Shown here piece by piece: positions 7,375 through 61,996 of a DNA stretch of 64,000 nucleotides. The position numbers were made by a program, and so were the translations under genes. The DNA is taken from NCBI GenBank assembly GCA_002335385.1, contig DCVK01000061.1, positions 4,370 through 68,369 on the forward strand, read 5' to 3'. This DNA is from Candidatus Aminicenantes bacterium UBA2190. GTDB taxonomy: Bacteria > Acidobacteriota > Aminicenantia > UBA2199. Below the pieces are notes generated by a model. That model was given only the letters and a program-made list of their open reading frames with translations, ran no database searches and was not told the DNA's origin. Every line of letters begins with the position of its first letter. The stretch's first letter is position 1.

Positions 7375-7501
7375 GTAAAGTCAAAATTGAAAAGTGAATT
7401 GAGAAACTCAAGGGGAAGAAATGTATAGGTGGAATTTATATTATTTTTCTTTGATCTTGCCATTGCGCTTTACATTTCACTTTTCACTATTCACTTTTCA
7501 C
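7375..7501. repeat. Heptad-periodic palindromic intergenic element (locus A)
   Basis: The left arm is GTAAAGT CAAAATT GAAAAGT GAATTGA. The right arm is TTTCAC TTTTCAC TATTCAC TTTTCAC. The arms are roughly complementary (about 14 of 17). The right arm overlaps the pgi stop codon. Confidence 0.7.
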
Positions 7502-9125
7502 TAGGATTCTTGTCTCTGCAATATTCGATCAACGCCCGGGTCGAACCGTCCTCATCGTCGGCGGGCAACTCGCCCTTGATCTTGGGCAACAGGCGGCCGG
7601 CGATCTTCTTCCCCAGCTCCACGCCCCACTGATCGAAGGAAAAGACATTCCAGAGCACTCCCTGGGCGAACACCTTGTGCTCGTAGAGGGCGATCAGCTT
7701 GCCCAGGGTGGCGGGGGTGAGTTCCTCGGCGAGGATGGTGTTGCTCGGGCGGTTTCCGGCGAATTCGCGGAACGGCTGGAGCGCTGCAGGGACTTTCTCG
7801 CGGGCCAGTTCCTCCCGGGTCCTGCCGAAGGCCAGCGCCTGCGCCTGGGCGAACATGTTGGCCAGCAACTGTTCGTGATGATCGCGGAACGGTTCCAGCG
7901 AACGGCGGTAGCCGATGAAATCGCAGGGGACCGCCTGGGTGCCCTGGTGCAGCAGCTGGAAAAACGCGTGCTGGCCCCCTGTGCCCGGTTCTCCCCAGAG
8001 CACCGGCGCGGTCGCGTAGTCCACCTCCCTGCCGCCGCGGTCGACGCCCTTGCCGTTGGACTCCATCTCCAGCTGCTGCAGGAAGGCCGGAAAGAGTCGG
8101 AGGTACTGGCTGTACGGCAGGACGGCATGAGTGGCGGCCCCCATGAAATCGGCGTGCCAGACGCCCAGCAGCGCCAGCAGCAGCGGCAGGTTCTCTCGCG
8201 GCGGCGCGCTGCGGAAATGGCGGTCCATGGCCGCACAGCCGCTCAGCATGTCGATGAAGCGCTCGGGACCGACAGCCATCATCAGCGGCAGGCCGACCGC
8301 CGAGGAAAGCGAAAAGCGCCCGCCCACCCAATCCCAGAATTCGAAGACATTCTCGGCGGCAACGCCCCATGCCAGCGCCGCCTGCGGATGGGCGGTCACG
8401 GCAGCGACGTGGCGGACCAGGGCGGCCCGGTCCTGAAAATGTTCGAGCAGCCAGTCGCGGGCAGCGCCGGCGTTGGCCATGGTTTCCTGGGTGGTGAAGG
8501 TCTTGGAAGCGATGATGAACAGCGTCGTCTCCGGGGAGAGGAAGCGCAGCGTCTCGGACAAGTGGCTGGGATCAAGGTTGGACACGAAATGGACCTGCAG
8601 GTCGCGCTGGGAGTAGAAGCGCAGGGCGGCGCAGGCCATGCGCGGGCCCAGGTCGGAGCCGCCGATGCCGATGTGAACGACATGGCGCAGGGGGCGGCCG
8701 CCATGGCCGATCCAGTTCCCCGAGCGGATGCGTCCGGCGGCGGCGGCCATCTGCTCCCTCACCTCGCGGATGCGCGGCATGACGTCGGCGCCGTCGACCC
8801 GCTGCGGGCGACCGGAAGAATCGCGCAGCGCCCAGTGCAGGGCCGGCCGGCCCTCGGTCTCGTTGACCGCCTCGCCGGCGAACAGTCGCCGGACTTCCTG
8901 CTCCAGGCCGCAGGCTGCGGCCAGGGCGAACAGCAGGTCCAGGGTCTCGTCGTTGACCGGGTTTTTCGCAAAGTCGAGATAAATGCCCTCGGCCTGGAGC
9001 GCGTAGCGCCGGCCGCGCCCGGGGTCGGCGGCGAAAAGGTCGCGCAGGTGCAGCTTCTTCATCCCCACCGCATGCTTTCTCAAGGCCAGCCACTCGGGCA
9101 TCGTCGACCTGCATCGCCGGTTCAT
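7491..9125 (-). CDS. pgi: Glucose-6-phosphate isomerase
   Basis: 544-aa ORF with clear PGI similarity throughout (HLRDLF..D..R, IGIGGSDLGP, WGEPGTGGQHAFFQLLHQGT). A GGGAGAAG RBS lies upstream of ATG 9125. Confidence 0.95.
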   Translation of the reverse strand: MNRRCRSTMPEWLALRKHAVGMKKLHLRDLFAADPGRGRRYALQAEGIYLDFAKNPVNDETLDLLFALAAACGLEQEVRRLFAGEAVNETEGRPALHWALRDSSGRPQRVDGADVMPRIREVREQMAAAAGRIRSGNWIGHGGRPLRHVVHIGIGGSDLGPRMACAALRFYSQRDLQVHFVSNLDPSHLSETLRFLSPETTLFIIASKTFTTQETMANAGAARDWLLEHFQDRAALVRHVAAVTAHPQAALAWGVAAENVFEFWDWVGGRFSLSSAVGLPLMMAVGPERFIDMLSGCAAMDRHFRSAPPRENLPLLLALLGVWHADFMGAATHAVLPYSQYLRLFPAFLQQLEMESNGKGVDRGGREVDYATAPVLWGEPGTGGQHAFFQLLHQGTQAVPCDFIGYRRSLEPFRDHHEQLLANMFAQAQALAFGRTREELAREKVPAALQPFREFAGNRPSNTILAEELTPATLGKLIALYEHKVFAQGVLWNVFSFDQWGVELGKKIAGRLLPKIKGELPADDEDGSTRALIEYCRDKNPSEK

Positions 9126-11680: not shown

Positions 11681-11945
11681 CGGTTTGCGGTTGACGGTGC
11701 ACGGTGTAGGGCAAGAAAAGAAAGCAATAATAAGAATTAACCGCCAAATCCCAAATTCCAATGACCCAATCCCCTAGCGGGGACTTTGACCCAAACGAAG
11801 AGAATGCCCATTTCAAGGGGCTTTCGTTTGGGAAATTGGAATTTGGAGCTTGGAATTTATTTGGAATTTGGTGCTTGAGATTTGGAATTCAAGTCTTACG
11901 ATTGCCTCTTCTCTTCCCGTCAACCGTCAACCGTTTACCGTATGC
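11681..11945. repeat. Nested heptad-periodic palindromic element (locus C)
   Basis: The outer arms are CGGTnnn x4 (11681-11708) and CCGTnnn x4 (11917-11944). The inner arms are CCAAnnn x4 (11744-11771) and a TTGGnnn array (11830-11890). The centre is a perfect 10-bp stem, 11790-11799 with 11823-11832. Confidence 0.8.
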
Positions 11946-19998: not shown

Positions 19999-20015
19999 GC
20001 TCTCTCTCTCAACAA

Positions 20016-20114
20016 GGGCCCAGGAGGTCCCGGTCACCTGCGGGATCCTGCTGATTGCTGCTACCTCTCGGTCCTGACAAGGTTCGCAGGCCCGCACCGC
20101 CGGGCTCCTGGGCC
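20016..20114 (-). ncRNA. ffs: Small (4.5S-type) signal recognition particle RNA
   Basis: The minus strand reads GGCCCAGGAG...CCUUGUCAGGACCGAGAGGUAGCAGCAAUCAGCAGG...CUCCUGGGCC. It has the domain IV motif GUCAGG..GNRA..AGCAGC and a 10-bp terminal helix. It sits immediately upstream of dnaX, which is a conserved synteny. Confidence 0.8.
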
Positions 20115-20164
20115 GTTTGTCCTTTTTAACCGGGGCCTTTCCGGCCCCGTGGAACTGGCGAAAA

Positions 20165-20251
<87 letters not shown>

Positions 20252-20422
20252 AGGCGCGTGGACATTGTATAATGATATCGCCCCAAAAGCAAGAGCCGAT
20301 TCGTATATTCGCCGCGCGTCGCGGCAGTTCGCTGTTCGCCTTGCCGTCCTCCGGCAGCCGCAAACCAGGCCCATGGCCATGAGAACGGGGCCTTTGCCGG
20401 ACAAGCCCCGTCCTTGTGCTCT

Positions 20423-27928: not shown

Positions 27929-28004
27929 TGGCTCCTCAGGAGGGACTTGAACCCCCAACCTAATGGTTAACAGCCATCCGCTCTGCCGATTGAGCTACTG
28001 AGGA
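27929..28004 (-). tRNA. tRNA-Asn (anticodon GTT)
   Basis: The hand-folded cloverleaf has an acceptor stem TCCTCAG/CTGAGGA, an anticodon loop CTGTTAA and a T-arm GGGGG-TTCAAGT-CCCTC. CCA is encoded. Confidence 0.9.
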
Positions 28005-28264
28005 ACCCGATTGGAATTATAGCATCCCGCTGAAAAAGTGTCAATTGATTTTTTGAGCCCTTGACCCGCCACGGGGGCGGACCGGGAAATCCGCCGGGGC
28101 CGCCCTGCCGACCGCGCGGCGGCAGGACCGGGAAAAAATTATCGCAAGGGGGAATGCTTTTTCCCGGATTTTCTGGAATAATCATCTTTTCGGGAATGCG
28201 AAGCGAGTCCATTGCGCGGAAAAAATCGCCAAAAGGTGCAGCCAACATTAGACTTGCCGATTAC

Positions 28265-28711
28265 ATGGACAGAAAACTGATCTTTTTGGACCTGCAGGCG
28301 GATTCAAAAGAAGAAGCCATCCGGGAGATCGTCGGGCGCATGAAGGAAAACCATGCGATCCGGGATGAAGAATCGGTGCTGGAAGAGATTTTCAGCCGCG
28401 AGTCCCGCGGCGGCACCTCGCCGGGAAACGGCGTCGCCGTTCCCCACGCCCGGGTGAAGACGATCGACCGCATCATCATGGCCATGGCCAGGCTGTCCAC
28501 CGGCGTAAGCTTCTCCGCGGAGGATCGTCAGCCGGTGCGGATCGTGTTCATCCTGATCACCCCGCTGGAAAAACTGAACGAGTACTGGAAGGTCCTGGCC
28601 GGCCTGGCGAAATTCCTGAAGGACCGCAAGCTGCTCAAGCAGCTTCTCGCGGTCGATTCCGTCGAAGCCGCCTGGGAGTTGTTCGACACGCTCGCTCCGC
28701 GGGACCAGTAA
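28265..28711 (+). CDS. ptsN: PTS EIIA type-2 domain protein (EIIA-Ntr / PtsN-like)
   Basis: 148-aa ORF with the phosphorylatable His region GNGVAVPHARV and a LIFLDLQADSKEEAIREI N-terminus typical of PtsN. Confidence 0.8.
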   Translation: MDRKLIFLDLQADSKEEAIREIVGRMKENHAIRDEESVLEEIFSRESRGGTSPGNGVAVPHARVKTIDRIIMAMARLSTGVSFSAEDRQPVRIVFILITPLEKLNEYWKVLAGLAKFLKDRKLLKQLLAVDSVEAAWELFDTLAPRDQ

Positions 28712-28755
28712 GAGAAGCCGGGCCGCCGCATTCCGTCGCCCGCCCCGCCCCGCCT

Positions 28756-28784
28756 TTGGCAAATCGCCCGGAATCGCATATAAT
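28756..28784 (+). promoter_or_regulatory. Duplicated leaderless-type promoter TTGGCA-17-TATAAT, 6 nt upstream of ATG 28791
   Basis: It has the same geometry as the promoter at 35755-35783. It now faces the truncated gene fragment and the NtrC-like regulator. Confidence 0.45.
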
Positions 28785-28790
28785 ATCGCC

Positions 28791-28937
28791 ATGCCGGCCG
28801 AGAGCAAGAAACTTTTCCTGAAACCGCATGAAGAGAAGCGCATCCTCGACGGCGAATTCTGGGCCTACGGCGAAGAAATCCGCATTCAACGGAGGAAAGG
28901 GGCATCCACCATAAATTTGCCGGTTGTCCCTGAGTGA
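28791..28937 (+). pseudogene. Truncated duplicate of the 5' end of the rRNA methyltransferase gene at 35790
   Basis: MPAESKKLFLKPHEEKRILDGEFWAYGEEIR matches MPTEYMKLFLKPHEEKRILDGEFWAYDNEIR at 25 of 31 aa. At nucleotide level 80 of 93 nt are identical, with a 37-nt perfect core. Similarity then ends and a stop follows at 28935-28937. Confidence 0.8.
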
Positions 28938-30295
28938 ACATGGGTGACACGGAGAGATTTTTCCGCTTGAATGTCCTGATCGTGGACGATGAAGCCAATA
29001 TCCGCAAGACGCTCTCATACTGCCTGGAAGCCGATGGAAACAGGGTCATCGCCGTGAGCAATCCGGCGGACGCCGTAAAGGAGGCCCGCAGGCGTTCCTT
29101 CGATCTGGCGTTCGTCGATCTCAAGCTGGGTGAAGAGAACGGCATGGATTTGATCCCGATATTGCTCATGGATTCTCCCTGGATCAAGATCGTTGTCATC
29201 ACCGCGCATGCCTCCATCGAGAGCGCCGTCGAGGCCATCCAGCGCGGCGCCACCGACTATATCGCCAAACCCTTCACTCCGGATCAGGTCAAGCTCATCA
29301 CCCGGAGGATCGGCAGGATCAGAGAGCTGGAAACCGAGATCGCGGTACTCAAGGAGAACATGCAGCGGCTGGGTCCGGAGGATCGGCTTCAGAGTCTGAG
29401 TGCCGGCATGCAAAGAGTCATTGAAACCGCGAAAAAGGCCGCAGCCTCGGAGGCGATCGTCTTGCTTTGCGGTGAAAGCGGCACGGGAAAATCAGTGTTT
29501 GCCAGGGCGATCCACCACTGGAGTCCGCGAGCGGCAAAACCCATGGGCGTTGTGGCTTGTCCAGCGGTTCCTCCCGATCTTCTTGAGAGTGAGTTGTTCG
29601 GGCATGCCAAAGGGGCATTTACCGGCGCAATTCGGGATAATCCGGGACGCATCGCCGCATGTGAAGGCGGTACGCTTTTCCTGGATGAGATCGGCGATAT
29701 GGCTCCTGCCGTGCAGGCCAAATTGCTGCGGTTCATCCAGGACAAGGAATATGAGCGCCTGGGGGAATCGCAGGTACGCAAGGCGGATGTCCGCATCATC
29801 GCCGCCACGAATGCCGACCTCAAAAAGCGCGTAGCCGAGGGTCGATTCCGGGAAGACCTGTTCTATCGGCTGAACGTAATTTGCCTGACGATTCCCCCGC
29901 TTCGTGATCGACCGGATGACATTGTGCCACTGGCCAGGGATTTTCTCAGGCATCTCTGCCAGGCCAACCATAAGGCGATTCTTGGGTTTACCTCCGGAGC
30001 CGAGAAATTCTTGTTAAGCCAGGCTTGGCCGGGAAATGTTCGGGAACTCCGCAACACCATCGAGCGGGTGGTCATCCTGGGCGGCGGCGAATGGATCGAT
30101 TTGTCCGATTTTCCCGAAAAAACGGTTTCCAGCTCCGGCACTCCAGCCCTTGGCGACAAGGTGCCGTTGGCCACCATCGAAGAATTGCACATCAAAAGAG
30201 TCATTGCCAATACCGCCTCACTCCAGGAAGCTGCGGATGTTCTGGGTATCGACCAGGCAACGCTCTGGCGCAGGAGAAGGATTTACGGAATTTGA
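28934..30295 (+). CDS. Sigma-54-dependent response regulator (NtrC family)
   Basis: A receiver domain (LIVDDE...DLAFVDLKL), an AAA+ domain with GESGTGKS and the GAFTGA loop (KGAFTGA), and a C-terminal Fis-type HTH. The start is GTG 28934 or ATG 28940, overlapping the stop of the gene fragment. Confidence 0.92.
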   Translation: MNMGDTERFFRLNVLIVDDEANIRKTLSYCLEADGNRVIAVSNPADAVKEARRRSFDLAFVDLKLGEENGMDLIPILLMDSPWIKIVVITAHASIESAVEAIQRGATDYIAKPFTPDQVKLITRRIGRIRELETEIAVLKENMQRLGPEDRLQSLSAGMQRVIETAKKAAASEAIVLLCGESGTGKSVFARAIHHWSPRAAKPMGVVACPAVPPDLLESELFGHAKGAFTGAIRDNPGRIAACEGGTLFLDEIGDMAPAVQAKLLRFIQDKEYERLGESQVRKADVRIIAATNADLKKRVAEGRFREDLFYRLNVICLTIPPLRDRPDDIVPLARDFLRHLCQANHKAILGFTSGAEKFLLSQAWPGNVRELRNTIERVVILGGGEWIDLSDFPEKTVSSSGTPALGDKVPLATIEELHIKRVIANTASLQEAADVLGIDQATLWRRRRIYGI

Positions 30296-30319
30296 TTCCG
30301 CGTTTTCTTGCCATCCACC

Positions 30320-30359
30320 TTGCAATTCGCAAGACATTTCTTTGTCAGATATTGCAATT
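30320..30359 (+). promoter_or_regulatory. Candidate enhancer (UAS): two TTGCAATT sites 32 bp apart
   Basis: TTGCAATT occurs at 30320-30327 and 30352-30359, and each contains the palindromic hexamer TTGCAA. The sites lie 60-100 nt upstream of the sigma-54 promoter. Confidence 0.3.
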
Positions 30360-30417
30360 TTCAAAGCCCGTCATCCTGGCTGCAAGAATAAGCCAGGGAA
30401 AACGTGGTCCTGATATA

Positions 30418-30432
30418 TGGCACGCCTTTTGC
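30418..30432 (+). promoter_or_regulatory. Sigma-54 (-24/-12) promoter
   Basis: TGGCACgccttTTGC matches the consensus TGGCAC-N5-TTGC exactly. It lies 45 nt upstream of the kinase gene start and directly downstream of the NtrC-type activator gene. Confidence 0.7.
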
Positions 30433-30476
30433 CTGTACTAAGGTGACAACGGTTGCCATTTGGAGGAATGCATCCA

Positions 30477-32309
30477 ATGACGTTAAAGAAAAAGATTCTC
30501 ATCGGGTATGGCGTCGCGTTCGCCCTCATGGTGCTCGTGGTGGCTTGGGCGATAACGAACCTGGTGTCGCTGGGCAGGGCGACCGACGCCATCCTCAGCG
30601 ATAACTACCGCAGCATCCTCGCCGCCGAGAACATGGTGGATGCCTTGGAGCGGCAGGACAGCGGGACGCTGCTCCTGTTCCTGGGCGAAAACGAAAAGGG
30701 GATCGCGCAGTTTCGGGAAAACGAAGCCGTCTTCCTGGAATGGCTGGCCAGGGCGAAAGACAACATCACGATTCAGGGAGAGGCGGGACTTGTCCAATCC
30801 ATCGAGACGAATTACTCGGCTTATCGAAAGCAATTCTCCGCGCTGACCGACTTCAGTGAAACGAACAAAGCGGCCTTGGTGCCCACCCATTATCAGGACA
30901 AAGTCTACCCCCCCTTCATCCAGGTTCGTGAGGCGTGTGTCGGCCTGCGCAACCTCAACGAGGAGACCATGTACGCCGCCAGCCTCGGGGCCGGCGCCGT
31001 GGCCAGGCGCGCGATCTGGTCAACGGCTCTCGTGGCCGCGTCGGCACTGATCGTGGCCTTGATGTTCAGCTTGTTTCTCGCCGAGCGGATTGCCCAACCG
31101 ATCCGCCGCTTCATGGAGGCGTCGCGGAGAATCTCCTCGGGCGACTATTCCGTCCAGGTGCCCGTTAAAACCGACGACGAGCTTGGGCATCTGGCCAGAG
31201 AGTTCAATCAGATGTCCCTTCAGCTTGGCCGCTACCACGAAATGAACTTCGACCAAATCATTGCTGAAAAGAACAAGGGCGAGGCGATTCTCTCGAGCAT
31301 CGAGGATGGCTTGGTGGTTTTCGACATCCAGCTCAAGGTGGCCGGCATCAATCCCGCCGCCCGCCGGATGCTGAAGCTGGAATTCACTGAAAGCTCCTCG
31401 TTACGCTGCATGGACATTCTGCCGGATCAGCAGGTCTGCGATCTGATCCACAAGACAGTCGAGACGGGAGCACAGCCGAACATCCCGGACGAACAACGGA
31501 TTATCGTTCTCCCGGATAATGAAGGTTCCAGGCATTACTTTTTTTCGGTTACGGCGATTCGCGGAAGGGACCAAAAACTGTCCGGCATTGTGCTCCTGCT
31601 CAGGGACGTGACTCGCCTGAAGGAAGTGGAGCGACTCAAGAGTGAGTTCATTATGGCCGCGTCTCATGAGCTGCGCACGCCACTGACCAGCCTGAGCATG
31701 AGCGTGGACCTGCTCATGGAACATGCAACCGGCAATCTGGCTGAAAGGGATCGGGATCTCCTGCAAGCAGCTCACGAGGAAGTCCACCGCATGAAGGAGC
31801 TCGTGAATGACTTGCTTGACCTCTCAAAAATCGAGGCGGGCCGGATCGAACTTGAGTTCGAAAATGTTCCGGTTGCAACCTTGTTCGGGCACGTCGAAGC
31901 GGTTTTCAAAAGCCAGACAGACATGAAACAGGTTTCGCTTGAATCGGCGCTCACCCATGATTCGCTCAAGGTCCGCGCCGATACCAACAAGATCACATGG
32001 GTATTGTCCAATCTGATTTCCAATGCCCTGCGCTATGTGAGCAGGGGTGGCCAGATAAGTCTGAAGGCTCTTCAGATCGGACATCACGTCCATCTCTCCG
32101 TGCGTGATAACGGGCCGGGAATTCCTCTCGAGTATCAATCCAAGTTATTTCAGAAATTCGTCCAGGTGAGAGGGCAGGAATCAAGTGGAACAGGGCTGGG
32201 ACTGTCCATTTGCAAGGAGATCGTGCGCGCTCATGGCGGCACGATCTGGGTGGAATCATCCGCAGGTCAGGGAAGCACATTCACCTTTTCCCTGCCGGTG
32301 GCCCAATAG
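30477..32309 (+). CDS. Sensor histidine kinase (TM-sensor, HAMP, PAS, HisKA, HATPase_c)
   Basis: H-box SHELRTPLTSL, N-box SNLISNALRY and G-boxes RDNGPGIP and GTGLGLSICKEIV, with two TM segments flanking an approximately 170-aa periplasmic region. The start MTLKKK (30477) lies 9 nt after GGAGGA. Confidence 0.9.
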   Translation: MTLKKKILIGYGVAFALMVLVVAWAITNLVSLGRATDAILSDNYRSILAAENMVDALERQDSGTLLLFLGENEKGIAQFRENEAVFLEWLARAKDNITIQGEAGLVQSIETNYSAYRKQFSALTDFSETNKAALVPTHYQDKVYPPFIQVREACVGLRNLNEETMYAASLGAGAVARRAIWSTALVAASALIVALMFSLFLAERIAQPIRRFMEASRRISSGDYSVQVPVKTDDELGHLAREFNQMSLQLGRYHEMNFDQIIAEKNKGEAILSSIEDGLVVFDIQLKVAGINPAARRMLKLEFTESSSLRCMDILPDQQVCDLIHKTVETGAQPNIPDEQRIIVLPDNEGSRHYFFSVTAIRGRDQKLSGIVLLLRDVTRLKEVERLKSEFIMAASHELRTPLTSLSMSVDLLMEHATGNLAERDRDLLQAAHEEVHRMKELVNDLLDLSKIEAGRIELEFENVPVATLFGHVEAVFKSQTDMKQVSLESALTHDSLKVRADTNKITWVLSNLISNALRYVSRGGQISLKALQIGHHVHLSVRDNGPGIPLEYQSKLFQKFVQVRGQESSGTGLGLSICKEIVRAHGGTIWVESSAGQGSTFTFSLPVAQ

Positions 32310-32318
32310 GAGGAACAC

Positions 32319-33044
32319 ATGGAAAAGGATTCCATCCTGGTCGTTGACGATGAGAAGAACATCCGTCTGACCATGTCGCAGTCATTGGAACCACTGGAGA
32401 TTCCAGTCCAGACTGCCGTGAATGGCGAGGAGGCACTTCAGAAACTTCGCAAGACTTCATACAGTCTGGTTTTCCTGGATTTAAAAATGCCTGGAATAGA
32501 CGGGATGGAGGTCCTTCGGCAAATCAAGGACAGCTGGCCCAAAGTCCGGGTAATCATCATCACTGCCCACGGGACGATTGAATCCGCCGTGGAGGCCATG
32601 AAATACGGCGCGGTAGATTTCATTCAGAAGCCTTTCAGTCCCGTTGAGATTCGGGAGTTGGCCACTCGGGTGCTGCGGCGCGAGGCGCTGCTGGAGAAGG
32701 ACGCGTTCGATTATTTCTCCTTGATCGAACTCACCAAAAAATACATCTCAGATCGCGGATTCTCGGCTGCCCGGGAAACCGTTCGGAAGGCCATGGCGGC
32801 GGACCCGACCCAGCCGGAGGCGTACAACCTTCTCGGGGCATTGCATGAAATCAAGGGTAATAGGTTGGAGGCCCAAAAATTCTACCGGGCGTCCTTGGAT
32901 ATCGACTCCTCATTCAAACCGGCCCGAGCGAACCTGGATCGTATCACGTCCTGGGAAAAAAAAGGCAGGATCGATCTCGGTCCCGACAGGAAAACCGCCG
33001 ATTTGCCGGACGAAGGCATCAAGGATGGCGCGGATGAAGAATAA
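32319..33044 (+). CDS. Response regulator receiver domain fused to a TPR-like C-terminal region
   Basis: A CheY-like domain (LVVDDE...LVFLDLKMPG...KPF) is followed by AYNLLGALHEIKGNRLEAQKFYRASLDID, which is TPR-like. An AGGAGG RBS is present. Confidence 0.85.
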   Translation: MEKDSILVVDDEKNIRLTMSQSLEPLEIPVQTAVNGEEALQKLRKTSYSLVFLDLKMPGIDGMEVLRQIKDSWPKVRVIIITAHGTIESAVEAMKYGAVDFIQKPFSPVEIRELATRVLRREALLEKDAFDYFSLIELTKKYISDRGFSAARETVRKAMAADPTQPEAYNLLGALHEIKGNRLEAQKFYRASLDIDSSFKPARANLDRITSWEKKGRIDLGPDRKTADLPDEGIKDGADEE

Positions 33045-33474
33045 CCGCTACATCGTGATCGTGGGCTGCGGCAGGCTGGGATCGCATCTGGCCAACCATC
33101 TCAGTCGTAGCGGCAATTCGGTGGTGGTGATTGATAAGAACGAGCCCACTTTCAAAGACCTGTCGCCAGATTTCAGCGGTTTTCGAGTTCACGGGGATGC
33201 CACGCAGATGGCCGTTCTGAAAGAGGCCAAGGTCAACCAAGCGGATATTCTGATCGCCACCACCCACGAGGACAACGTCAATTTGATGGTGGCTCAAGTG
33301 GCGCAGGGTATTTTCAGGGTTCCCCATGTGCTGGCCAGGGTTTTCGATCCCAAAAGAATGGAGGTTTATGCGCAACTGGGCATCGACACCATATGCCCGA
33401 CATCTGTGGCCGCGGAGATGTTTCTTCAAGCCGTTGCCAATGGCGCGGCCGGACGCAGGGGAGCCAATCCATGA
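33034..33474 (+). CDS. TrkA-N (RCK N-terminal, NAD-binding) domain protein
   Basis: IVIVGCGRLGSHLANHL Rossmann motif in a protein of about 146 aa with no RCK_C domain. The start is 33025 or 33034, overlapping the upstream gene. Confidence 0.8.
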   Translation: MKNNRYIVIVGCGRLGSHLANHLSRSGNSVVVIDKNEPTFKDLSPDFSGFRVHGDATQMAVLKEAKVNQADILIATTHEDNVNLMVAQVAQGIFRVPHVLARVFDPKRMEVYAQLGIDTICPTSVAAEMFLQAVANGAAGRRGANP

Positions 33475-34133
33475 AAGTGCTCATCGTCGGAAGCGGCAAA
33501 ACGCTATATTTTTTATCCCGGAATTTTTCTGCGCGCGGATACCAGGTCGTCATCATCAACCGCAACCCGGAAGAATGTATCCAACTGTCCCGCCAACTGA
33601 CTGCCACGGTGGTTTGCGGCGACGGAAGCGATGACGACATTCTCAAGGATGCCGGCGCCATGGGCGCCGATGCCGTGCTCGCCATCACTCCGAACGACCA
33701 GGACAATCTGGTCATCTGTCAACTTGCCTCCCGCAAATTCAGTGTTCCCAGAACCATGGCTCTGGCCAACGATCCAGACAATGCCGAAGTTTTCGAAAAG
33801 TTGGGAGTCTCGGGCTTTTCCACAACCCACATCGTCGGCAGTCTGATCGAGCAACGGGCCTCCTTGGAACAGATTACCAACTTGTTGCCCGTAGGAGAAG
33901 GCCGGGTGAACGTGACGGAAATCGTGCTTACTGGAGACTCCCCGGTCGTAGGGAAGCTCTTGAAGGATATCGACCTGCCTGAAAACGCCTTGGTGGCCGT
34001 GGTGATCCGCGACAAAAAGCCGATCATCCCCCGCGGAGCCACTGTCATGCTGGCAGGCGACCGAGTCGTACTGATTACACTTCCGGAAAATCATGGTCCG
34101 GTGCTCAAGGCGTTCACCGGCGAACGGTTATAG
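33471..34133 (+). CDS. TrkA/KtrA-like protein (RCK_N plus RCK_C)
   Basis: 220 aa. The N-terminus VLIVGSGKTLYFL has a degenerate GxGxxG motif. The C-terminal TrkA_C-like region is VTEIVLTGDSPVVGKLLKDIDLPE...VVIRD. It overlaps the upstream gene as ATGA. Confidence 0.8.
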   Translation: MKVLIVGSGKTLYFLSRNFSARGYQVVIINRNPEECIQLSRQLTATVVCGDGSDDDILKDAGAMGADAVLAITPNDQDNLVICQLASRKFSVPRTMALANDPDNAEVFEKLGVSGFSTTHIVGSLIEQRASLEQITNLLPVGEGRVNVTEIVLTGDSPVVGKLLKDIDLPENALVAVVIRDKKPIIPRGATVMLAGDRVVLITLPENHGPVLKAFTGERL

Positions 34134-34147
34134 GGGGGGACCGGCCC

Positions 34148-35623
34148 TTGCGAGAGAAAGAATATCTCAAACAGCGCTATTCCTCGATCATTTCCGCAGT
34201 CGGAATGATTCTGCTTCTGTCCAGCGTTATGATGTTGACACCACTTTTAATTCTCATTTCACATCCCGAAGAGGCCATCTACTTGTGGGCCTTCTGTATA
34301 CCCGCGGCCAGTCTTTTTTTTATGGGATTTTTCTTGTGGAAGGCATTCCGTTCTCCACTCAGCATCACGCTCACCGTCCAGGAGGGCGGCATCACGATTT
34401 TGTTGAGTTGGATTGTCGTCATCCTCTTTTCCGCATGGCCGTTTGCATCCGCCTTGGATCTGCCGTATTCACAGGCCATATTTGAATCGGTCAGCGGATG
34501 GACCACCACCGGACTCACGGTCGTGAACGTGGCCAGCACCGGCAAAATGGTTCTGATCTGGCGCAGCATCATCCAATTGGCCGGTGGCGCAGGGTTGGCC
34601 ATCATCATGATGTCGGCCATCGTCGGTCCGGTTGGCGTCGGCATTGCGAGCGCAGAGGGCCGAAGTGACCAACTCGTGCCGCAAGTGAAACAGTCGGCAC
34701 GCCTGGTTCTGATCATCTATGCCGGCTACGCCCTCGCCGGAACCATCGCCTATCGGATAGCGGGGATGTCTCTATTTGACGCGGTCAACCATTCCTTTGC
34801 CGCGATTTCCACCGGCGGTTTCTCCACGCGAGCGGAAAGTATCGGATACTGGGATTCAGCCGCCGTTGAAGCCGTGACCCTGCCGCTTATGCTTCTCGGT
34901 AATCTGAGCTTTGTCAGCGCATGGCTGCTGTGGCACGGCAAGCTGCGCACGGTGGTGCGGAACGGCGAAGTGCGCCTATTGGCCGTGCTCATTCCCTTGT
35001 CGGCCGCGGCAGTGTTCCTCCTGACGAGCCAGGCGCTATATCCCCAGCTCGGAAAATCAATTCGCGTCGCTGTCTTCGAAACAGTGACCGCCATAACCAC
35101 CACGGGCTTTTCAACAGTGAATTACGGCAGTTGGAATTCCGCTGGATTATTCCTGTTGATCCTTCTGATGCTGATCGGCGGCGGCACATGTTCCACCGCC
35201 GGTGGCATCAAGCAATATCGCGTCTATTTGTTCTGGAGGACTCTGCGCTGGGACATCCAGCGCGCCATCATGCCGCGCACAGCGATTTTAGAGCGTTCGC
35301 TCTGGGAAGGGAACCGACGCGTCTTTTTGGACGATGCCCGAATCCGTCAAGTGCTGACTTTCATCCTCATGTATCTCATGACCTATCTGTTCGGCGTGCT
35401 GGTTTTATGCGCCTGCGGCTGCCCTCTCGTCGACTCCCTGTTTGAATTCGCCTCCGCTCTTGGAACCGTTGGGCTTTCCGTTGGCGTCACCAGCGCCGGC
35501 ATGCCGGATGCCGCTTTGTGGTCGGAAATCATTGCTATGTTTCTAGGTCGCCTGGAGTTCATTGTCGTGATTGTCAGTGTCATCAAGATCAGCAGCGATG
35601 TGCGAATTCTGAAAAAAGGCTAG
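34148..35623 (+). CDS. trkH: TrkH/KtrB family cation (K+) transporter
   Basis: 491-aa polytopic protein with repeated selectivity-filter-like motifs (SGWTTTGL, ISTGGFS, ITTTGFS, GTVGLSVG). It has a TTG start. Confidence 0.88.
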   Translation: MREKEYLKQRYSSIISAVGMILLLSSVMMLTPLLILISHPEEAIYLWAFCIPAASLFFMGFFLWKAFRSPLSITLTVQEGGITILLSWIVVILFSAWPFASALDLPYSQAIFESVSGWTTTGLTVVNVASTGKMVLIWRSIIQLAGGAGLAIIMMSAIVGPVGVGIASAEGRSDQLVPQVKQSARLVLIIYAGYALAGTIAYRIAGMSLFDAVNHSFAAISTGGFSTRAESIGYWDSAAVEAVTLPLMLLGNLSFVSAWLLWHGKLRTVVRNGEVRLLAVLIPLSAAAVFLLTSQALYPQLGKSIRVAVFETVTAITTTGFSTVNYGSWNSAGLFLLILLMLIGGGTCSTAGGIKQYRVYLFWRTLRWDIQRAIMPRTAILERSLWEGNRRVFLDDARIRQVLTFILMYLMTYLFGVLVLCACGCPLVDSLFEFASALGTVGLSVGVTSAGMPDAALWSEIIAMFLGRLEFIVVIVSVIKISSDVRILKKG

Positions 35624-35641
35624 ACCCCGGACGGACTGTAA

Positions 35642-35663
35642 GCCAACAAACCGTTTTGTTGGC
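35642..35663 (+). terminator. Hairpin 3' of trkH
   Basis: GCCAACAAA-ccgt-TTTGTTGGC forms a 9-bp perfect stem 18 nt after the stop. The U-tract that follows is weak (gtggtttcc). Confidence 0.4.
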
Positions 35664-35754
35664 GTGGTTTCCACGAAGGACGCTCCAATGGCGACGTCAA
35701 TCGTACTGAACCAATCTCTCCCGAGTCACTAATAAGTCAGTCACCTGAAAACAT

Positions 35755-35783
35755 TTGGGAATTTCTTCAAAATTTCTTATAAT
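35755..35783 (+). promoter_or_regulatory. Sigma-70-like promoter TTGGGA-17-TATAAT, 6 nt upstream of ATG 35790 (leaderless geometry)
   Basis: TTGGGA at 35755-35760, TATAAT at 35778-35783, actccc, then ATG. Confidence 0.5.
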
Positions 35784-35789
35784 ACTCCC

Positions 35790-36977
35790 ATGCCCACCGA
35801 GTACATGAAGCTTTTCCTGAAGCCGCACGAGGAGAAGCGCATCCTCGACGGCGAATTCTGGGCCTACGACAACGAGATCCGCTCCCTGAAGGGGTTCGTA
35901 CCCGGCGAGATCTGCAGGCTGTACTCGGCCGAAGGGATGTATGTCGCCAGCGGTTACGTCAATCCCCTCTCCACCATCGCCTTCCGCGTGCTCAGCTACG
36001 ACCCCGACGACGTGATCGACCGCGAGTTCCTGCGCCAGCGCATCGAGGCCGCCGACCGCCAGCGCCGGGTTCTCCGCCCCGAAAATGCTTACTACCGCAT
36101 GGCCTACGGCGAGGCCGACTTCCTGCCCGGCCTGGTCATCGACCGCTTCGCCGATCACTTCATCGTCCAGATCACCACCGCCGGCATGGAGAATTTCAAG
36201 GAGGACGTATTCGCCGTCATCGCCGAGATGTACCCCGGCGCCGTCATCATCGAGAAATCGCTGGTGGCGGCGCGCGAGAAGGAAGGGCTGCCGCTCATCA
36301 ACCGCATGGTCACCCCGGGAGCGGCGCCCGAGAAGGTGATCGAGGTCAACGGCGTGAAGTTCCGGGTGGATTTCCTCAAGAGCCAGAAGACCGGGTTCTT
36401 CCTCGACCAGCGCGACAACTACATGCTGCTGGAGCCCATTTCCCGGGGCCGGGAGGTGCTGGACGCCTTTTCCTATGCCGGCGCCTGGGGCCTGCATGCC
36501 GGCCGCTTCGGCGCCCGCCATGTGGAGTTCATCGAGATCTCGGGCGACTACATGGCCCAGGCCCGCGAGAACGCCGCCTTGAACGGCTTCGCCGCCGAGG
36601 GTCTCTCCTTCGTCCAGGACGACGCCATCAAGGTCTTGAAGGAAATGAGCAGGGCCGGGGAGGGTAAGGACATCGTCATCCTCGATCCGCCGGCCTTCGT
36701 CAAGTCGCGCGCCAAGCTGAAGGAGGCGCTGCGCGGCTACAAGGAGATCAACCTGCGGGCGCTGAAAATGCTCCGCCCCGGCGGCTTCCTGGTCAGCTGC
36801 TCGTGCTCCCACTTTTTGGGCAGGGACGACTTCATCGCCGTCATCCAGGATGCCGCGCGCGACGCCGGCCGCCGCGTCAAGCTCATCGAGCTGCGCGGCC
36901 AGCCCTACGATCACGCCGTGCTGCTGCCGCTGTTCCAGTCGGATTACCTGAAATGCGCATTGTTCAATGTGTACTGA
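35790..36977 (+). CDS. Class I SAM-dependent rRNA methyltransferase (RlmI-like, PUA-like N-domain)
   Basis: 395-aa ORF. The N-terminus KPHEEKRILDGEFWAYDNEI is like RlmI-family proteins. The SAM-binding region VLDAFSYAGAWGL, DPPAF and the C-terminal YLKC are all typical of the family. Confidence 0.85.
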   Translation: MPTEYMKLFLKPHEEKRILDGEFWAYDNEIRSLKGFVPGEICRLYSAEGMYVASGYVNPLSTIAFRVLSYDPDDVIDREFLRQRIEAADRQRRVLRPENAYYRMAYGEADFLPGLVIDRFADHFIVQITTAGMENFKEDVFAVIAEMYPGAVIIEKSLVAAREKEGLPLINRMVTPGAAPEKVIEVNGVKFRVDFLKSQKTGFFLDQRDNYMLLEPISRGREVLDAFSYAGAWGLHAGRFGARHVEFIEISGDYMAQARENAALNGFAAEGLSFVQDDAIKVLKEMSRAGEGKDIVILDPPAFVKSRAKLKEALRGYKEINLRALKMLRPGGFLVSCSCSHFLGRDDFIAVIQDAARDAGRRVKLIELRGQPYDHAVLLPLFQSDYLKCALFNVY

Positions 36978-37987: not shown

Positions 37988-38209
37988 ATCCTTTTTTTGC
38001 CCGATCGGTCAAATTCGCCTTGGCATTCACGTCTTCCTGTCGCATCCTCTCTTCCCGGACACCGGCCATGGTAAACCGATTGCGCATCATGCCTTTTTTG
38101 CAGCGGCGGTGCAAATCGTCCGCCGACCCCGGTGGATGCAATTCGTCCCCTGGGAACGGGATTTACCCGCCCAGCGGGGGCGTGATGGCCGCGCCCCTGC
38201 CGTTGAATT

Positions 38210-40213
38210 TCATTCGATCCTTTCCTTGATGCGGCCGTCGCGCAGGAAGACGAAGCGGCCGGGGAGCAGCTCCTGCAATTTGGCTTTCAGGTTCAGCAGC
38301 CCGGGATCGCGGAGATCCTCCCGGGCGACCGGACGCTCGTCCAGGTACCACTCCTCCTGGAAGCCGCGGTCGCCGGGCATGTAGACATACTTCCGGCCGT
38401 TCCACTGGATGCCGCGGTGCTTGGCCTGGATCACCACGTCCTTGAATTCCTTTTTCAGCACGATCTCCCCCGTTCCCGGGACCAGCTCGATGACCTTCAT
38501 GATCCCGGGGTAGGTCATGCGCACCCGGCCCGCGATGTAGGGCGTCTCCATGGTGTACCACAGCTCGGTCTCCATGTAGGCCGGATAGCCGGGGAAATCG
38601 GCCCCGCGCATGACCGGCAGCAGCGAGACGCCGCGGAACGAGGCGGGCGGGCGGATGCCGGCCAGGTCCAGCAGGGTGGGGGCGATATCGATGTCGCGTA
38701 CGGTCGGGACGATGCGCCGGCCGGCGAAATCCTCGTAGGGCGAGCTGACGCCGAAGGTCATGTTGTTGGAAAAGGGGCCGCGCAGATGGTCGCCGTGGCC
38801 GGTGCCGTAGCCGTTCTCGTACAGGCTCTCGCCGTGGTCGGAGAAAAGGACGACGATCGTGTTCTCCGCCAGCCCGCATCGCTGCAGAAAGTCCAGCATC
38901 TCCCCCACCTGGTCGTCGAACATGCGCACCGTGCCATCGTAGAGGTCGACAATCTGCTCCCTGTCCGCGGAGCTGAGGTCGTACCCCGAATAGGTCTTCA
39001 TCATGTCGACCTTGCGGTACTTGTGCGGGCCGCGGTACTCAGGCCGTGTATAGCGCCGGTAATAGGGATACTGGCTGCCGTAGGGAAAGTGGCTGTTGGA
39101 GCTGAAGTGGAACAGGAAGAACGGCTTGCCGGCCTTGAGCGCCCTGCGGATGAAACGCATGCTGGCGTTGGTCACGTAATAGGGATCGATGTTCAGCGGC
39201 ATCAGCCACATCACCGGGAACAGCTCGCGCCCGGCCGGGTGGATCAAGAAGCTGAGCAGCGAATAATGCAGCTCCAAACAGCGCTGCCGGATCAGGTTCT
39301 GCAGGGTGAGGCGCGGCGCCTGGACGTGATCGAAGCCGAAGCCCAGGCGGGAGAATATGTCGCCGGCGAAATCGCTGATCATGCCCGTGTCGTAGCCTTC
39401 CTTCCTGAAGGACTGGATCAGGGTCGGCAGCTTCAGCTGCAGCTCCTCCGGCCGGGGGAACATATGCCGCACCTTGTGCTCGGGGGGGAAGTTCGAGGTG
39501 AAGACCGAGGTGAAGGAGGAGAAAGTGCGGGCCAGCGACGACTTGGCGTTGAGGAAATTGGCGCCGCGCCGCAGCAGGCGGTCGATGTGGGGCGTCGGCC
39601 GGCGATAGCCATTGTACCCCAGGTGGTCGGGCCGCAGCGAATCGGTCCCCAGGACCAGGATATTGGGCCGGCCTCCCGCCGGCGGCGCCTTCAGTGCCGG
39701 CGTCTTGAAGGGAAAGATGAAGACGACGACCAGGGCGATGACGACCGCGCCGTGCCAGGGGCGCCGCTTCCGGCAGGCGGCCAGCATGACCACCAGGGGA
39801 AAGGCGATGCGGATCAACCACAGGGGCAGTGCGTCGGTGATGAACGCCTGCAACTTCATGGGCAGCCCCCCCCTGGCATACAGGGGCTCCACGAAAAGCT
39901 GGGGCGAAACCTTGACGGCCAGCAGCAGGAACCAGGCCCAGACGAACAGCTGGAAAAGGAAGATCATCCCGCGGCGCTCGATCCCCAGCAGCATGGTGAA
40001 CAGGGCGATGAAGAGGGCGACCAGGGCGTATACCGCAATGATCTTCAGGTTGAAGAGGACGATCACCGTCTTGAAGCCGCCGGTGATGACCTGTTCCGCG
40101 GCCGGGTCGCGTTCGCCCATGTAGGAAAAATCGAAGAACAGGATGAAGGAGGAGGCGAACAGCATGGCGGCCAGAAAGAGAGATATGCCGATGTGTTTTT
40201 TGGCGGTTTTCAT
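38210..40213 (-). CDS. Sulfatase-like hydrolase/transferase with an N-terminal membrane domain (LTA-synthase/phosphotransferase-like)
   Basis: About 5 N-terminal TM segments are followed by a sulfatase fold (NILVLGTDSLRPDHLGYNGY, FSDHGE). Confidence 0.8.
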   Translation of the reverse strand: MKTAKKHIGISLFLAAMLFASSFILFFDFSYMGERDPAAEQVITGGFKTVIVLFNLKIIAVYALVALFIALFTMLLGIERRGMIFLFQLFVWAWFLLLAVKVSPQLFVEPLYARGGLPMKLQAFITDALPLWLIRIAFPLVVMLAACRKRRPWHGAVVIALVVVFIFPFKTPALKAPPAGGRPNILVLGTDSLRPDHLGYNGYRRPTPHIDRLLRRGANFLNAKSSLARTFSSFTSVFTSNFPPEHKVRHMFPRPEELQLKLPTLIQSFRKEGYDTGMISDFAGDIFSRLGFGFDHVQAPRLTLQNLIRQRCLELHYSLLSFLIHPAGRELFPVMWLMPLNIDPYYVTNASMRFIRRALKAGKPFFLFHFSSNSHFPYGSQYPYYRRYTRPEYRGPHKYRKVDMMKTYSGYDLSSADREQIVDLYDGTVRMFDDQVGEMLDFLQRCGLAENTIVVLFSDHGESLYENGYGTGHGDHLRGPFSNNMTFGVSSPYEDFAGRRIVPTVRDIDIAPTLLDLAGIRPPASFRGVSLLPVMRGADFPGYPAYMETELWYTMETPYIAGRVRMTYPGIMKVIELVPGTGEIVLKKEFKDVVIQAKHRGIQWNGRKYVYMPGDRGFQEEWYLDERPVAREDLRDPGLLNLKAKLQELLPGRFVFLRDGRIKERIE

Positions 40214-56069: not shown

Positions 56070-56173
56070 GGTGAAAAAGTGAAAAGTGAAAAGTAAAATG
56101 CAAAGAAAAGACTATGGATGAATTTCTCATTGCCTTCTCTTCACCTTTCACTTTTCACTTTTCACATTTCACC
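56070..56173. repeat. Heptad-periodic palindromic element (locus B)
   Basis: GGTGAAAAAGTGAAAAGTGAAAAGT pairs with ACTTTTCACTTTTCACATTTCACC in a stem of about 24 bp with one bulge. The core motifs GCAAAGAAAAGAC and ATTGCCTTCTCTTCAC are shared with locus C. Confidence 0.8.
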
Positions 56174-61891: not shown

Positions 61892-61996
61892 GACATCTGA
61901 CCCCTGACGTCTAACCTCTGACATCTAACGTCAGGCGTCTACCGTCTGACATCTGACATCTGTCGTCTGACATCTGACGTCTAGGGTCTAACATCT
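61892..61996. repeat. Tandem array of 15 heptamers, consensus GAC(A/G)TCT (locus E)
   Basis: It is exactly 105 nt in register: GACATCT GACCCCT GACGTCT AACCTCT GACATCT AACGTCA GGCGTCT ACCGTCT GACATCT GACATCT GTCGTCT GACATCT GACGTCT AGGGTCT AACATCT. It contains an internal 8-bp inverted repeat, 61903-61910 with 61928-61935. Confidence 0.85.

Follow-up and report, generated by a model that had tools for sequence, protein, structure and literature searches.

A Trk-type potassium-uptake island between two copies of an rlmI gene start in Aminicenantes bacteria

Candidatus Aminicenantes bacterium UBA2190 carries, on contig DCVK01000061.1, a compact block of six genes for signal transduction and potassium transport, set between two copies of the start of an RlmI-like methyltransferase gene (rlmI). 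We analyzed this block within a stretch of 64,000 nt (henceforth the window; all coordinates are window positions), together with sister and related loci labelled L001–L053. A sequence-only reading of the window had described the block as an island lacking an integrase and resembling the product of site-specific integration. Our comparison of filled and empty sites among relatives identifies the block as horizontally acquired DNA, which was probably installed by one recombinational insertion through the rlmI start. The locus, which lies entirely on the forward strand, comprises the following features:

28265..28711 (+), stand-alone PTS EIIA-2 (PtsN-like; PTS, phosphotransferase system) gene of the resident left flank; Pfam PTS_EIIA_2, 2.7e-32
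28755..28883 (+), left repeat: resident rlmI promoter, 6 nt, ATG and rlmI codons 1–31
28756–28784 (+), left promoter, TTGGCA-17-TATAAT, 11/12 match, 6 nt before the ATG
28791..28937 (+), stump open reading frame (ORF) of 48 codons, 31 derived from rlmI and 17 from the left linker of the island
28884..28969 (+), left end of the island: linker and first ~10 codons of ntrC, without a homologue in donor-type cassettes elsewhere
28940..30295 (+), NtrC-type sigma-54 enhancer-binding response regulator; Pfam Response_reg, Sigma54_activat (2.2e-65) and AAA_lid_14, with GAFTGA in the translation
30319..30433 (+), regulatory region between ntrC and the kinase gene
30320–30332, palindromic TTGCAATTCGCAA, likely activator site (predicted)
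30352–30364, TTGCAATTTTCAA, likely activator site (predicted)
30418–30433 (+), predicted near-consensus sigma-54 -24/-12 promoter, TGGCACGCCTTTTGCC
30477..32309 (+), sensor histidine kinase; Pfam 4HB_MCP, HAMP, PAS, HisKA and HATPase_c
32319..33044 (+), CheY-like receiver protein with a tetratricopeptide repeat (TPR) tail; Pfam Response_reg (2.7e-32) and TPR_8
33034..33474 (+), short RCK (regulator of K+ conductance) protein with a TrkA_N domain only; Pfam TrkA_N, 2e-27; called as a gene in L040
33471..34133 (+), RCK protein of KtrA/TrkA type; Pfam TrkA_N and TrkA_C, NCBIfam TrkA models below cut-off
34148..35623 (+), TrkH-family potassium uptake membrane protein; Pfam TrkH, 1.8e-56
35624..35753 (+), AT-rich spacer at the right end of the island, with hairpin CCAACAAACCGTTTTGTTGG
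35754..35882 (+), right repeat: incoming rlmI-type promoter, 6 nt, ATG and codons 1–31 of the intact rlmI
35755–35783 (+), right promoter, TTGGGA-17-TATAAT, 10/12 match, 6 nt before the ATG
35790..36977 (+), intact gene for an RlmI-like 23S rRNA 5-methylcytosine (m5C) methyltransferase, 395 aa; Pfam PUA_3 and Methyltrans_SAM

The two repeats form the top repeat family between 20 and 45 kb, with a spacing of 6999 nt and 79% identity over 129 nt. By direct count, 102 of the 129 nt are identical, and from the ATG onward (28791–28883 and 35790–35882) 80 of 93; the longest perfect run is a core of 37 nt (28833–28869). The sequence-only reading had given the same figures for the coding part and the core, and all of them were reproduced. 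The local alignment score of the pair is 133 vs 14.9 ± 2.5 for shuffled sequences (maximum 34), and similarity stops at the repeat boundaries, beyond which 11 of 55 nt match upstream and 17 of 57 nt downstream. Both copies are headed by sigma-70-type promoters of equal geometry (TTGnnA, 17 nt, TATAAT, 6 nt, ATG), again as had been read; TTTGGGAATTTCNTCNRAATTYYTTATAATAC gives an example pattern of the right-type promoter with its spacer. The TATAAT-6 nt-ATG arrangement recurs upstream of rlmI in nearly all sampled relatives, with a longer spacing in L018, and from this spacing a leaderless transcript is predicted. A Rfam scan of the window returned only a signal recognition particle (SRP) RNA and two tRNAs, and no structured RNA in repeat or spacer.

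As previously read, the right copy opens an intact rlmI-like gene and the left copy a 48-codon stump, on the evidence of Pfam domains and ORF structure. The predicted methyltransferase is RlmI-like: it scores below the NCBIfam cut-offs of both the 23SC1962Mtase (296.7 bits, cut-off 575) and the RlmI model (259 bits, cut-off 712). The stump ORF stops 2 nt before the ntrC ATG, and it is open, with identical TGA-nn-ATG geometry, in 4/4 species that carry the island. In L001 it has suffered a 42-nt in-frame deletion that removes the 37-nt core. Between the window and L003, the stump differs at 16/93 positions vs 3/93 for the right copy; because it evolves about five times faster, the stump peptide appears to be a remnant in decay, whose reading frame is maintained at most because of where it lies.

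The DNA between the repeats differs in composition from its surroundings. Its GC content is 55.6% vs 64.0% in the flanks, GC at third codon positions (GC3) is 0.66–0.72 in island genes vs 0.81–0.91 in flanking genes, and its tetranucleotide correlation with the whole window drops to 0.68–0.77 vs 0.88–0.97 elsewhere; the lower GC noted from the sequence is thus borne out. The same holds for the asymmetry described at the two edges, with 67% GC in the ptsN–stump spacer and 46% in the trkH–rlmI spacer, promoter included. The length of about 6.9 kb also stood, but the count of seven genes did not: the segment holds six genes plus the stump ORF. All six were assigned by Pfam, non-coding DNA totals just 390 nt, and the genes are under purifying selection, with a ratio of nonsynonymous to synonymous substitution rates (dN/dS) of ~0.1–0.35. 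The start of the kinase gene, ATG at 30477 with GGAGGA ahead of it, is conserved. Together, TrkH and the RCK subunits (TrkA_N/TrkA_C) are predicted to form a Trk/Ktr potassium uptake system; since NCBIfam equivalog scores lie below cut-off, this assignment is made at family level only.

In the regulatory region between ntrC and the kinase gene, the predicted -24/-12 promoter was matched against the reference pattern TGGCAC-N5-TTGC. Both this promoter and the upstream palindrome are kept in L001–L003 and in the distant cassettes L021, L025 and L032. By its predicted domains, and with a putative sigma-54 promoter nearby, the regulator is a bacterial enhancer-binding protein of the NtrC family. 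A literature search on sigma-54 control of trk genes returned nothing specific.

Upstream of the left repeat, the PtsN-like protein matches the NCBIfam PtsN and FruA-IIA models below cut-off. At 28247–28249 the window reads ATT where relatives have the ptsN start ATG; the next in-frame ATG is at 28265, giving a product 6 residues shorter. The segment between the repeats is free of heptad elements, as had been noted. Period-7 tandem arrays (TTTCACT, GGAATTT, GACGTCT x13) occupy intergenic sites of the window at 7475–7502, 11831–11889, 56075–56172 and 61892–61996, and recur at intergenic sites in relatives, including upstream of rlmI in L010, L014 and L017.

A scan of species-representative genomes with RlmI yielded 20 loci, mostly labelled as Aminicenantes or Acidobacteriota metagenome-assembled genomes (MAGs). 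Three other species-level genomes, L001–L003 (RlmI 89% identical), have the same island, stump and junctions, and the island is also present in 6/6 contigs encoding an identical RlmI. Extra rlmI-start fragments, searched by short-word blastn, occur only in L001–L003. The junctions recur in independent assemblies from different projects, among them three GTDB species representatives and several ENA/JGI contigs of up to 180 kb. This recurrence bears on another alternative, a chimeric contig joined at the repeat during assembly or binning, which the metagenome-assembled source and a shift in composition between repeats, the classic signature of a chimera, might bring to mind. Because L001–L003 and all six contigs with identical RlmI have the same junctions, the structure is not an assembly artefact; divergence among these independent assemblies also fits real lineages, and we give the artefact practically no credence.

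Protein searches combined with look-ups of gene context uncovered close relatives with an empty site. L048/L049, L050/L051 and L053 (RlmI 88–89% identical) are as near to the window as the filled genomes are, and they are fully syntenic with it through znuACB, ptsN, rlmI, a radical-SAM gene, a sulfatase gene and onward. In the more distant L015 and L017, rlmI likewise follows ptsN directly. The uninterrupted ptsN–rlmI junction that the sequence-only reading proposed to look for is therefore present in all of these loci, and in the close relatives its gap of 79–80 nt equals the ptsN-to-stump gap in the window. The island itself is known from four species of one small clade, and other relatives have unrelated content at the locus. 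Neither a composition like that of the flanks nor an identical arrangement in all relatives, the two outcomes that had been named as speaking against an acquired island, was observed.

Across Aminicenantes (L004–L020), the interval ahead of rlmI is hypervariable, ranging from ~80 nt (L006) to ~8 kb. The ~8-kb versions (L004, L008, L009, L012) consist of genes for sensory kinases and response regulators in opposite orientation, and ptsN is inverted in L010. We considered whether this variable DNA represents similar islands and rejected the idea: the kinase and regulator genes run on the opposite strand, and there is no stump.

Comparison of filled and empty alleles distinguishes the resident from the imported repeat. 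The left-copy promoters, like the DNA ahead of them, are orthologous to the empty-site alleles; they differ from empty-site promoters at 1–5 of 36 positions for L048 and L053, and at 6–8 of 36 for L015 and L017. Compared with all left copies and all empty-site promoters of the clade, the right promoter shows 12–18 differences in 36 positions; the promoters of L048 and L053 differ at 14–18 of 36 from the right copies. Further downstream, at +94 to +193, the empty alleles show 3–11 differences per 100 nt to the right copies vs ~70 per 100 to the left copies. The empty allele thus corresponds to the left repeat's left half followed by the right repeat's right half, and the left repeat is the resident gene start. 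From codon 32 on, the intact rlmI is by the same comparison the clade's own allele. Against all other lineages, the right promoter shows at least 11 of 36 differences, with rlmI-specific motifs and spacing kept. Because it is as far from the clade's promoter as those of the most distant lineages, it appears to be imported rather than duplicated in situ, foreign to the clade and derived from another, unsampled Aminicenantes-like rlmI locus. These promoter comparisons agree with the earlier proposal that the repeats mark a junction between host and incoming DNA.

The same data bear on a local origin of the repeats, through tandem duplication of the rlmI 5' end or a very long target-site duplication as foreign DNA entered by illegitimate recombination, with the right promoter diverging later. 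Such an origin would account for the similarity of the coding parts, which differ at 10–14 of 93 nt between left and right repeats, and for the failure to find a donor with the right-type promoter among the rlmI loci compared. It would, however, require some 13 additional changes within 36 nt along a very short branch, with function kept. As the resident promoter changed at 1–5 positions over the same period, duplication in situ followed by divergence is very unlikely; moreover, no tandem rlmI duplicate was seen in more than 25 related loci.

We next consider the source of the cargo. The same six genes in the same order, with 64–88% amino-acid identity, occur in at least 15 metagenome contigs (47–68% GC), and nucleotide homology to cassettes elsewhere (L044, L047) spans 28970–35611. 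The cassette that the sequence-only reading suggested seeking elsewhere thus exists, in chromosomal potassium gene clusters that lack the repeats, rlmI and ptsN. In L044, a 247-kb contig of 57% GC, it sits inside such a cluster. Outside the island clade, the best TrkH match reaches 81% identity, and most of the named near TrkH relatives come from Desulfobacterales, Thermodesulfobacteriota or Desulfomonilaceae MAGs, which suggests an ancestry of Desulfobacterota type for the cassette. Since the composition differs and the nearest relatives of the cassette are in another phylum, the segment is acquired DNA; with its atypical composition, patchy distribution and homologues in another lineage, it is a horizontally acquired genomic island in the operational sense.

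Donor-type clusters (L044:557–14138; L021–L024, L027–L029, L032, L035) surround the six-gene cassette with further potassium genes. Upstream lie genes for TrkH, TrkA and a Kef-like Na_H_Exchanger-TrkA_N protein; downstream of trkH follow a conserved protein of 180–200 aa without a Pfam match and then a TrkH-TrkA pair. All of these extra genes are absent from the island of the window. The idea that the cassette natively lay upstream of rlmI in its donor was rejected, as 19 metagenome loci as well as L044 and L047 have no rlmI, ptsN or stump near it. Likewise discarded was the spacer as relic rlmI-upstream DNA of another lineage, based on a shared GTCAAT motif ~100 nt upstream: alignment z scores were at most 3.7 and mostly below 2.5.

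An alternative that would speak against plain recombination is a classical integrative element, whose integrase was lost or acted in trans and whose attP, mimicking the rlmI start, recombined with attB. The layout invites this view: the repeats flank a block of foreign composition at a gene end that is regenerated, close relatives have precise empty sites, presence is polymorphic in both of the groups defined by flank phylogeny (see below), and the imported promoter, with the gene start, plays the part of an attP arm. The gene content does not. No recombinase or transposase was detected by Pfam in the six island genes or in four alternative ORFs on both strands, the latter having no matches, in line with the earlier statement that integrase, transposase and excisionase are missing. 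The island copies of L001–L003 likewise lack a recombinase gene or remnant, so that 0/4 copies hold one, and the 390 nt of non-coding DNA leave no room for one. Relatives of the cassette are chromosomal potassium gene clusters without att-like repeats, and relatives among mobile DNA were not found: a plasmid collection gave matches only to the generic sigma-54 AAA+ segment, a phage search gave none, and neither did an IMG/VR scan with the island kinase. Moreover, the repeats are long and imperfect, without a defined short identical core conserved across genomes, and only one junction type is seen. We therefore consider an integrative element unlikely. Of the att-like picture drawn by the sequence-only reading, the repeats and the empty sites stand, and a dedicated element that targets gene starts finds no support.

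Two other forms of mobility were rejected. A transposon or composite bounded by insertion sequences finds no transposase and no terminal inverted repeats at the island ends (score 22 vs a null maximum of 23), and the 129-nt repeat is imperfect. Integration via the nearby tRNA-Asn is contradicted by position, as this gene lies ~800 nt ahead of the left repeat, on the far side of ptsN, and in neither repeat. The sole extra DNA in the island copies of L001–L003 is a 2.2-kb insertion sequence in L001 (L001:3880–6134), which interrupts the island kinase gene at a point equivalent to window ~31990 and carries a split DDE_Tnp_1_4 (IS1380-type) transposase (E = 1e-100).

Flank phylogenies place the window with L001 and L053, as opposed to L002, L003 and L048, with L050 outside both; each of these two groups holds filled and empty genomes. 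Two island haplotypes, 13–15% apart over ~31.8–34.8 kb, unite the window with L003 and L001 with L002, discordant with the flank groups. The synonymous divergence (dS) between the window and L003 is 0.01–0.12 for most island genes vs 0.25–0.46 in the flanks. Because the haplotypes cut across the flank groups and window–L003 dS is low, island DNA must have been exchanged between species by homologous recombination. The island is old within the species complex and segregates as a presence/absence polymorphism. Dating it from dS alone was rejected, as recombination mosaics confound the estimate.

Exchange also seems to have reached the repeats. At +57, +60 and +63 the left copy of the window shows the bases of the right copy (CTC GAC GGC), where other left copies and the empty L053 allele read CTG GAG GGG, and the right copy of L002 carries left-type bases; this suggests repeat-to-repeat gene conversion in the window and in L002. 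The 37-nt core coincides with the part of rlmI that is most conserved throughout the 20 or more relatives, and the L003 stump has 5 changes within it. The perfect core of the window is thus best read as partly a secondary conversion tract on the most conserved piece of rlmI, and the earlier proposal that it is the footprint of the crossover is not supported. In rlmI itself, L003:10091–10161 (window 35880–35950) is a 70-nt patch in which 20 mismatches and a 3-nt indel set L003 apart from the window; it starts exactly at the right-repeat end. Because it resembles the L005 and L006 alleles, we take it as a small recombination mosaic.

The empty allele of L048 is left-like through the promoter and codons 1–12 and right-like in codons 13–31. 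This mosaic suggests a crossover between left and right repeats, i.e., excision, and the island could probably be lost in this way. The mosaic would also suit a scenario in which the island is old and vertical at the locus and every empty site is a deletion between repeats, as would a haplotype divergence (13–15%) as deep as that between flank groups and window–L001 dS values in the island (0.15–0.49) similar to those in the flanks. Yet the island is confined to four species, the more distant L015, L017 and L050 have an intact ptsN–rlmI junction, GC3 is ~0.67 vs ~0.9, and the nearest cassette relatives belong to another phylum. An ancestral arrangement is accordingly highly improbable: the island is old within the clade and is not ancestral to the locus.

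Taken together, we favor as the probable origin of the island a single recombinational insertion through the rlmI start, with later spread or loss by homologous recombination, and do not regard it as a self-mobile element. On a single occasion, in an ancestor of a few related Aminicenantes species, an operon block of ~6.6–6.9 kb would have entered the 5' end of rlmI immediately after ptsN. The incoming DNA would have brought with it a leaderless promoter and gene start of rlmI type, derived from another Aminicenantes lineage, and recombined through rlmI-start homology without an island-encoded integrase. This could have happened by one crossover of the Campbell type with a circular molecule, or by homologous exchange on the right side together with illegitimate joining at codon 31 of the resident gene. 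On the left, the product would be the resident promoter with codons 1–31, the decaying stump; on the right, the imported promoter and start would be joined to the resident gene body, so that rlmI stays intact. The resident promoter would now drive the stump ORF as a leaderless transcript, and the stop of this ORF would couple its translation to that of ntrC. NtrC would in turn activate the promoter at 30418–30433 and thereby the kinase, CheY-TPR and Trk potassium-uptake genes, and the imported promoter would drive rlmI.

Several observations weigh against this account. Neither a donor lineage nor an intermediate with the right-type promoter was found among the rlmI loci compared, and blastn found no homologue of the 56-nt left linker and the 130-nt right spacer outside L001–L003. 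The diagnostic sites narrow the changeover from imported to resident sequence no further than to codons 14–20 or beyond. No circular form was found, the island being known from assembled sequence alone. The Desulfobacterota-type ancestry of the cassette rests on MAG labels of TrkH homologues only, and the L048 mosaic on few sites. Finally, all three frames stop before ntrC, which makes conservation of the stump ORF weak evidence of function.

We regard as doubtful a more far-reaching version, in which the island is an integrase-independent, homology-driven mobile unit that uses as an attachment site a portable copy of the leaderless promoter and the first 31 codons of its target. Such a unit would enter by a RecA-type single crossover, through which the resident promoter is donated to the activator gene and a replacement promoter to rlmI, and exit by crossover between the repeats, thus cycling among Aminicenantes species. 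This version fits the polymorphism in both flank groups, the conversion tracts between repeats and the mosaic L048 allele, none of which proves it.

Other observations concern the surroundings of the island. A second presence/absence segment lies at 38190–40189, where the sulfatase gene (38210–40213, minus strand) is absent in L001 and L003 and present in L002, L048 and L050. Between znuB and ptsN, tRNA-Asn(GTT) occupies 27929–28044 together with its promoter, a perfect 12/12 sigma-70 match. This gene is on the minus strand in the window, L008, L013, L015, L018 and L019, and on the plus strand in L002, L003, L004, L006, L009, L010, L012 and L017, so that the small tRNA-Asn segment seems to flip between lineages; long inverted repeats flanking it were not found. 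At 20015–20252, a small SRP RNA (20015–20113) adjoins tRNA-Ser(GGA) (20164–20252), both on the minus strand, an ordinary arrangement.

In sum, as an example of genes acquired by recombination with no integrase involved, the island is clear-cut yet fairly ordinary, and it requires no new mechanism or biology. Its interest lies in a well-documented instance of an operon from another phylum having been installed in the chromosome of an uncultured phylum without a dedicated recombinase. A short gene-start homology would both anchor the insertion and rewire transcription, capturing a housekeeping promoter for the incoming regulator and restoring the interrupted gene. Near-isogenic filled and empty sites, together with two haplotypes that cross species, are usable for studying island gain and loss driven by homologous recombination in Aminicenantes metagenomes. 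The cargo is a conserved module of Trk potassium-uptake genes under predicted sigma-54 control with a two-component system, which has landed beside a PtsN-like gene.

Among known systems, integrative and conjugative elements, integrative and mobilizable elements and other integrative islands insert at gene ends (the 3' ends of tRNA genes, the 5' or 3' ends of protein genes) and regenerate them from attP. The island shares with them a foreign block at a gene end, direct repeats of that end, an element-borne copy and precise empty sites. Unlike them, it has no integrase or excisionase and no conjugation or mobilization genes, and other insertion sites were not seen; its repeats, at 129 nt and 79% identity, include a whole promoter, and the relatives of its cargo are ordinary chromosomal operons. 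Other parallels are Campbell-type integration of suicide plasmids by a single crossover and homology-facilitated illegitimate recombination in natural transformation. In these processes, too, one stretch of homology suffices and no dedicated recombinase is needed; the product shows either the homology duplicated on both sides or a truncated resident copy next to an intact incoming one. The event described here differs in being natural and evolutionarily old, and it is reconstructed from sequence only.

With regard to its cargo, ntrYX and trkA are adjacent in Alphaproteobacteria, and the island similarly combines TrkH and RCK genes with an NtrC-family two-component system, directly downstream of a PtsN-like EIIA gene. 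It differs from other Trk/Ktr systems in that the trk genes belong to a predicted sigma-54-dependent operon with its own kinase and CheY-TPR protein. The position beside a PtsN-like gene is notable because TrkA is under the control of EIIA-Ntr in Escherichia coli (Lee et al. 2007, PNAS 104:4124, cited in PMC9239096), although a corresponding link in the window would be hypothetical and the adjacency may be coincidence. Effector/immunity arrays of the type VI secretion system in Vibrio cholerae are reported to undergo sequential displacement of modules linked to a conserved gene, which leaves orphan stumps (PMC5361080). Compared with those arrays, the Aminicenantes island would involve a gene start with its promoter instead of a gene end, a single event and regulatory and transport cargo; what the two appear to have in common is recombination via a conserved gene segment that leaves a displaced remnant of the resident beside the new module.

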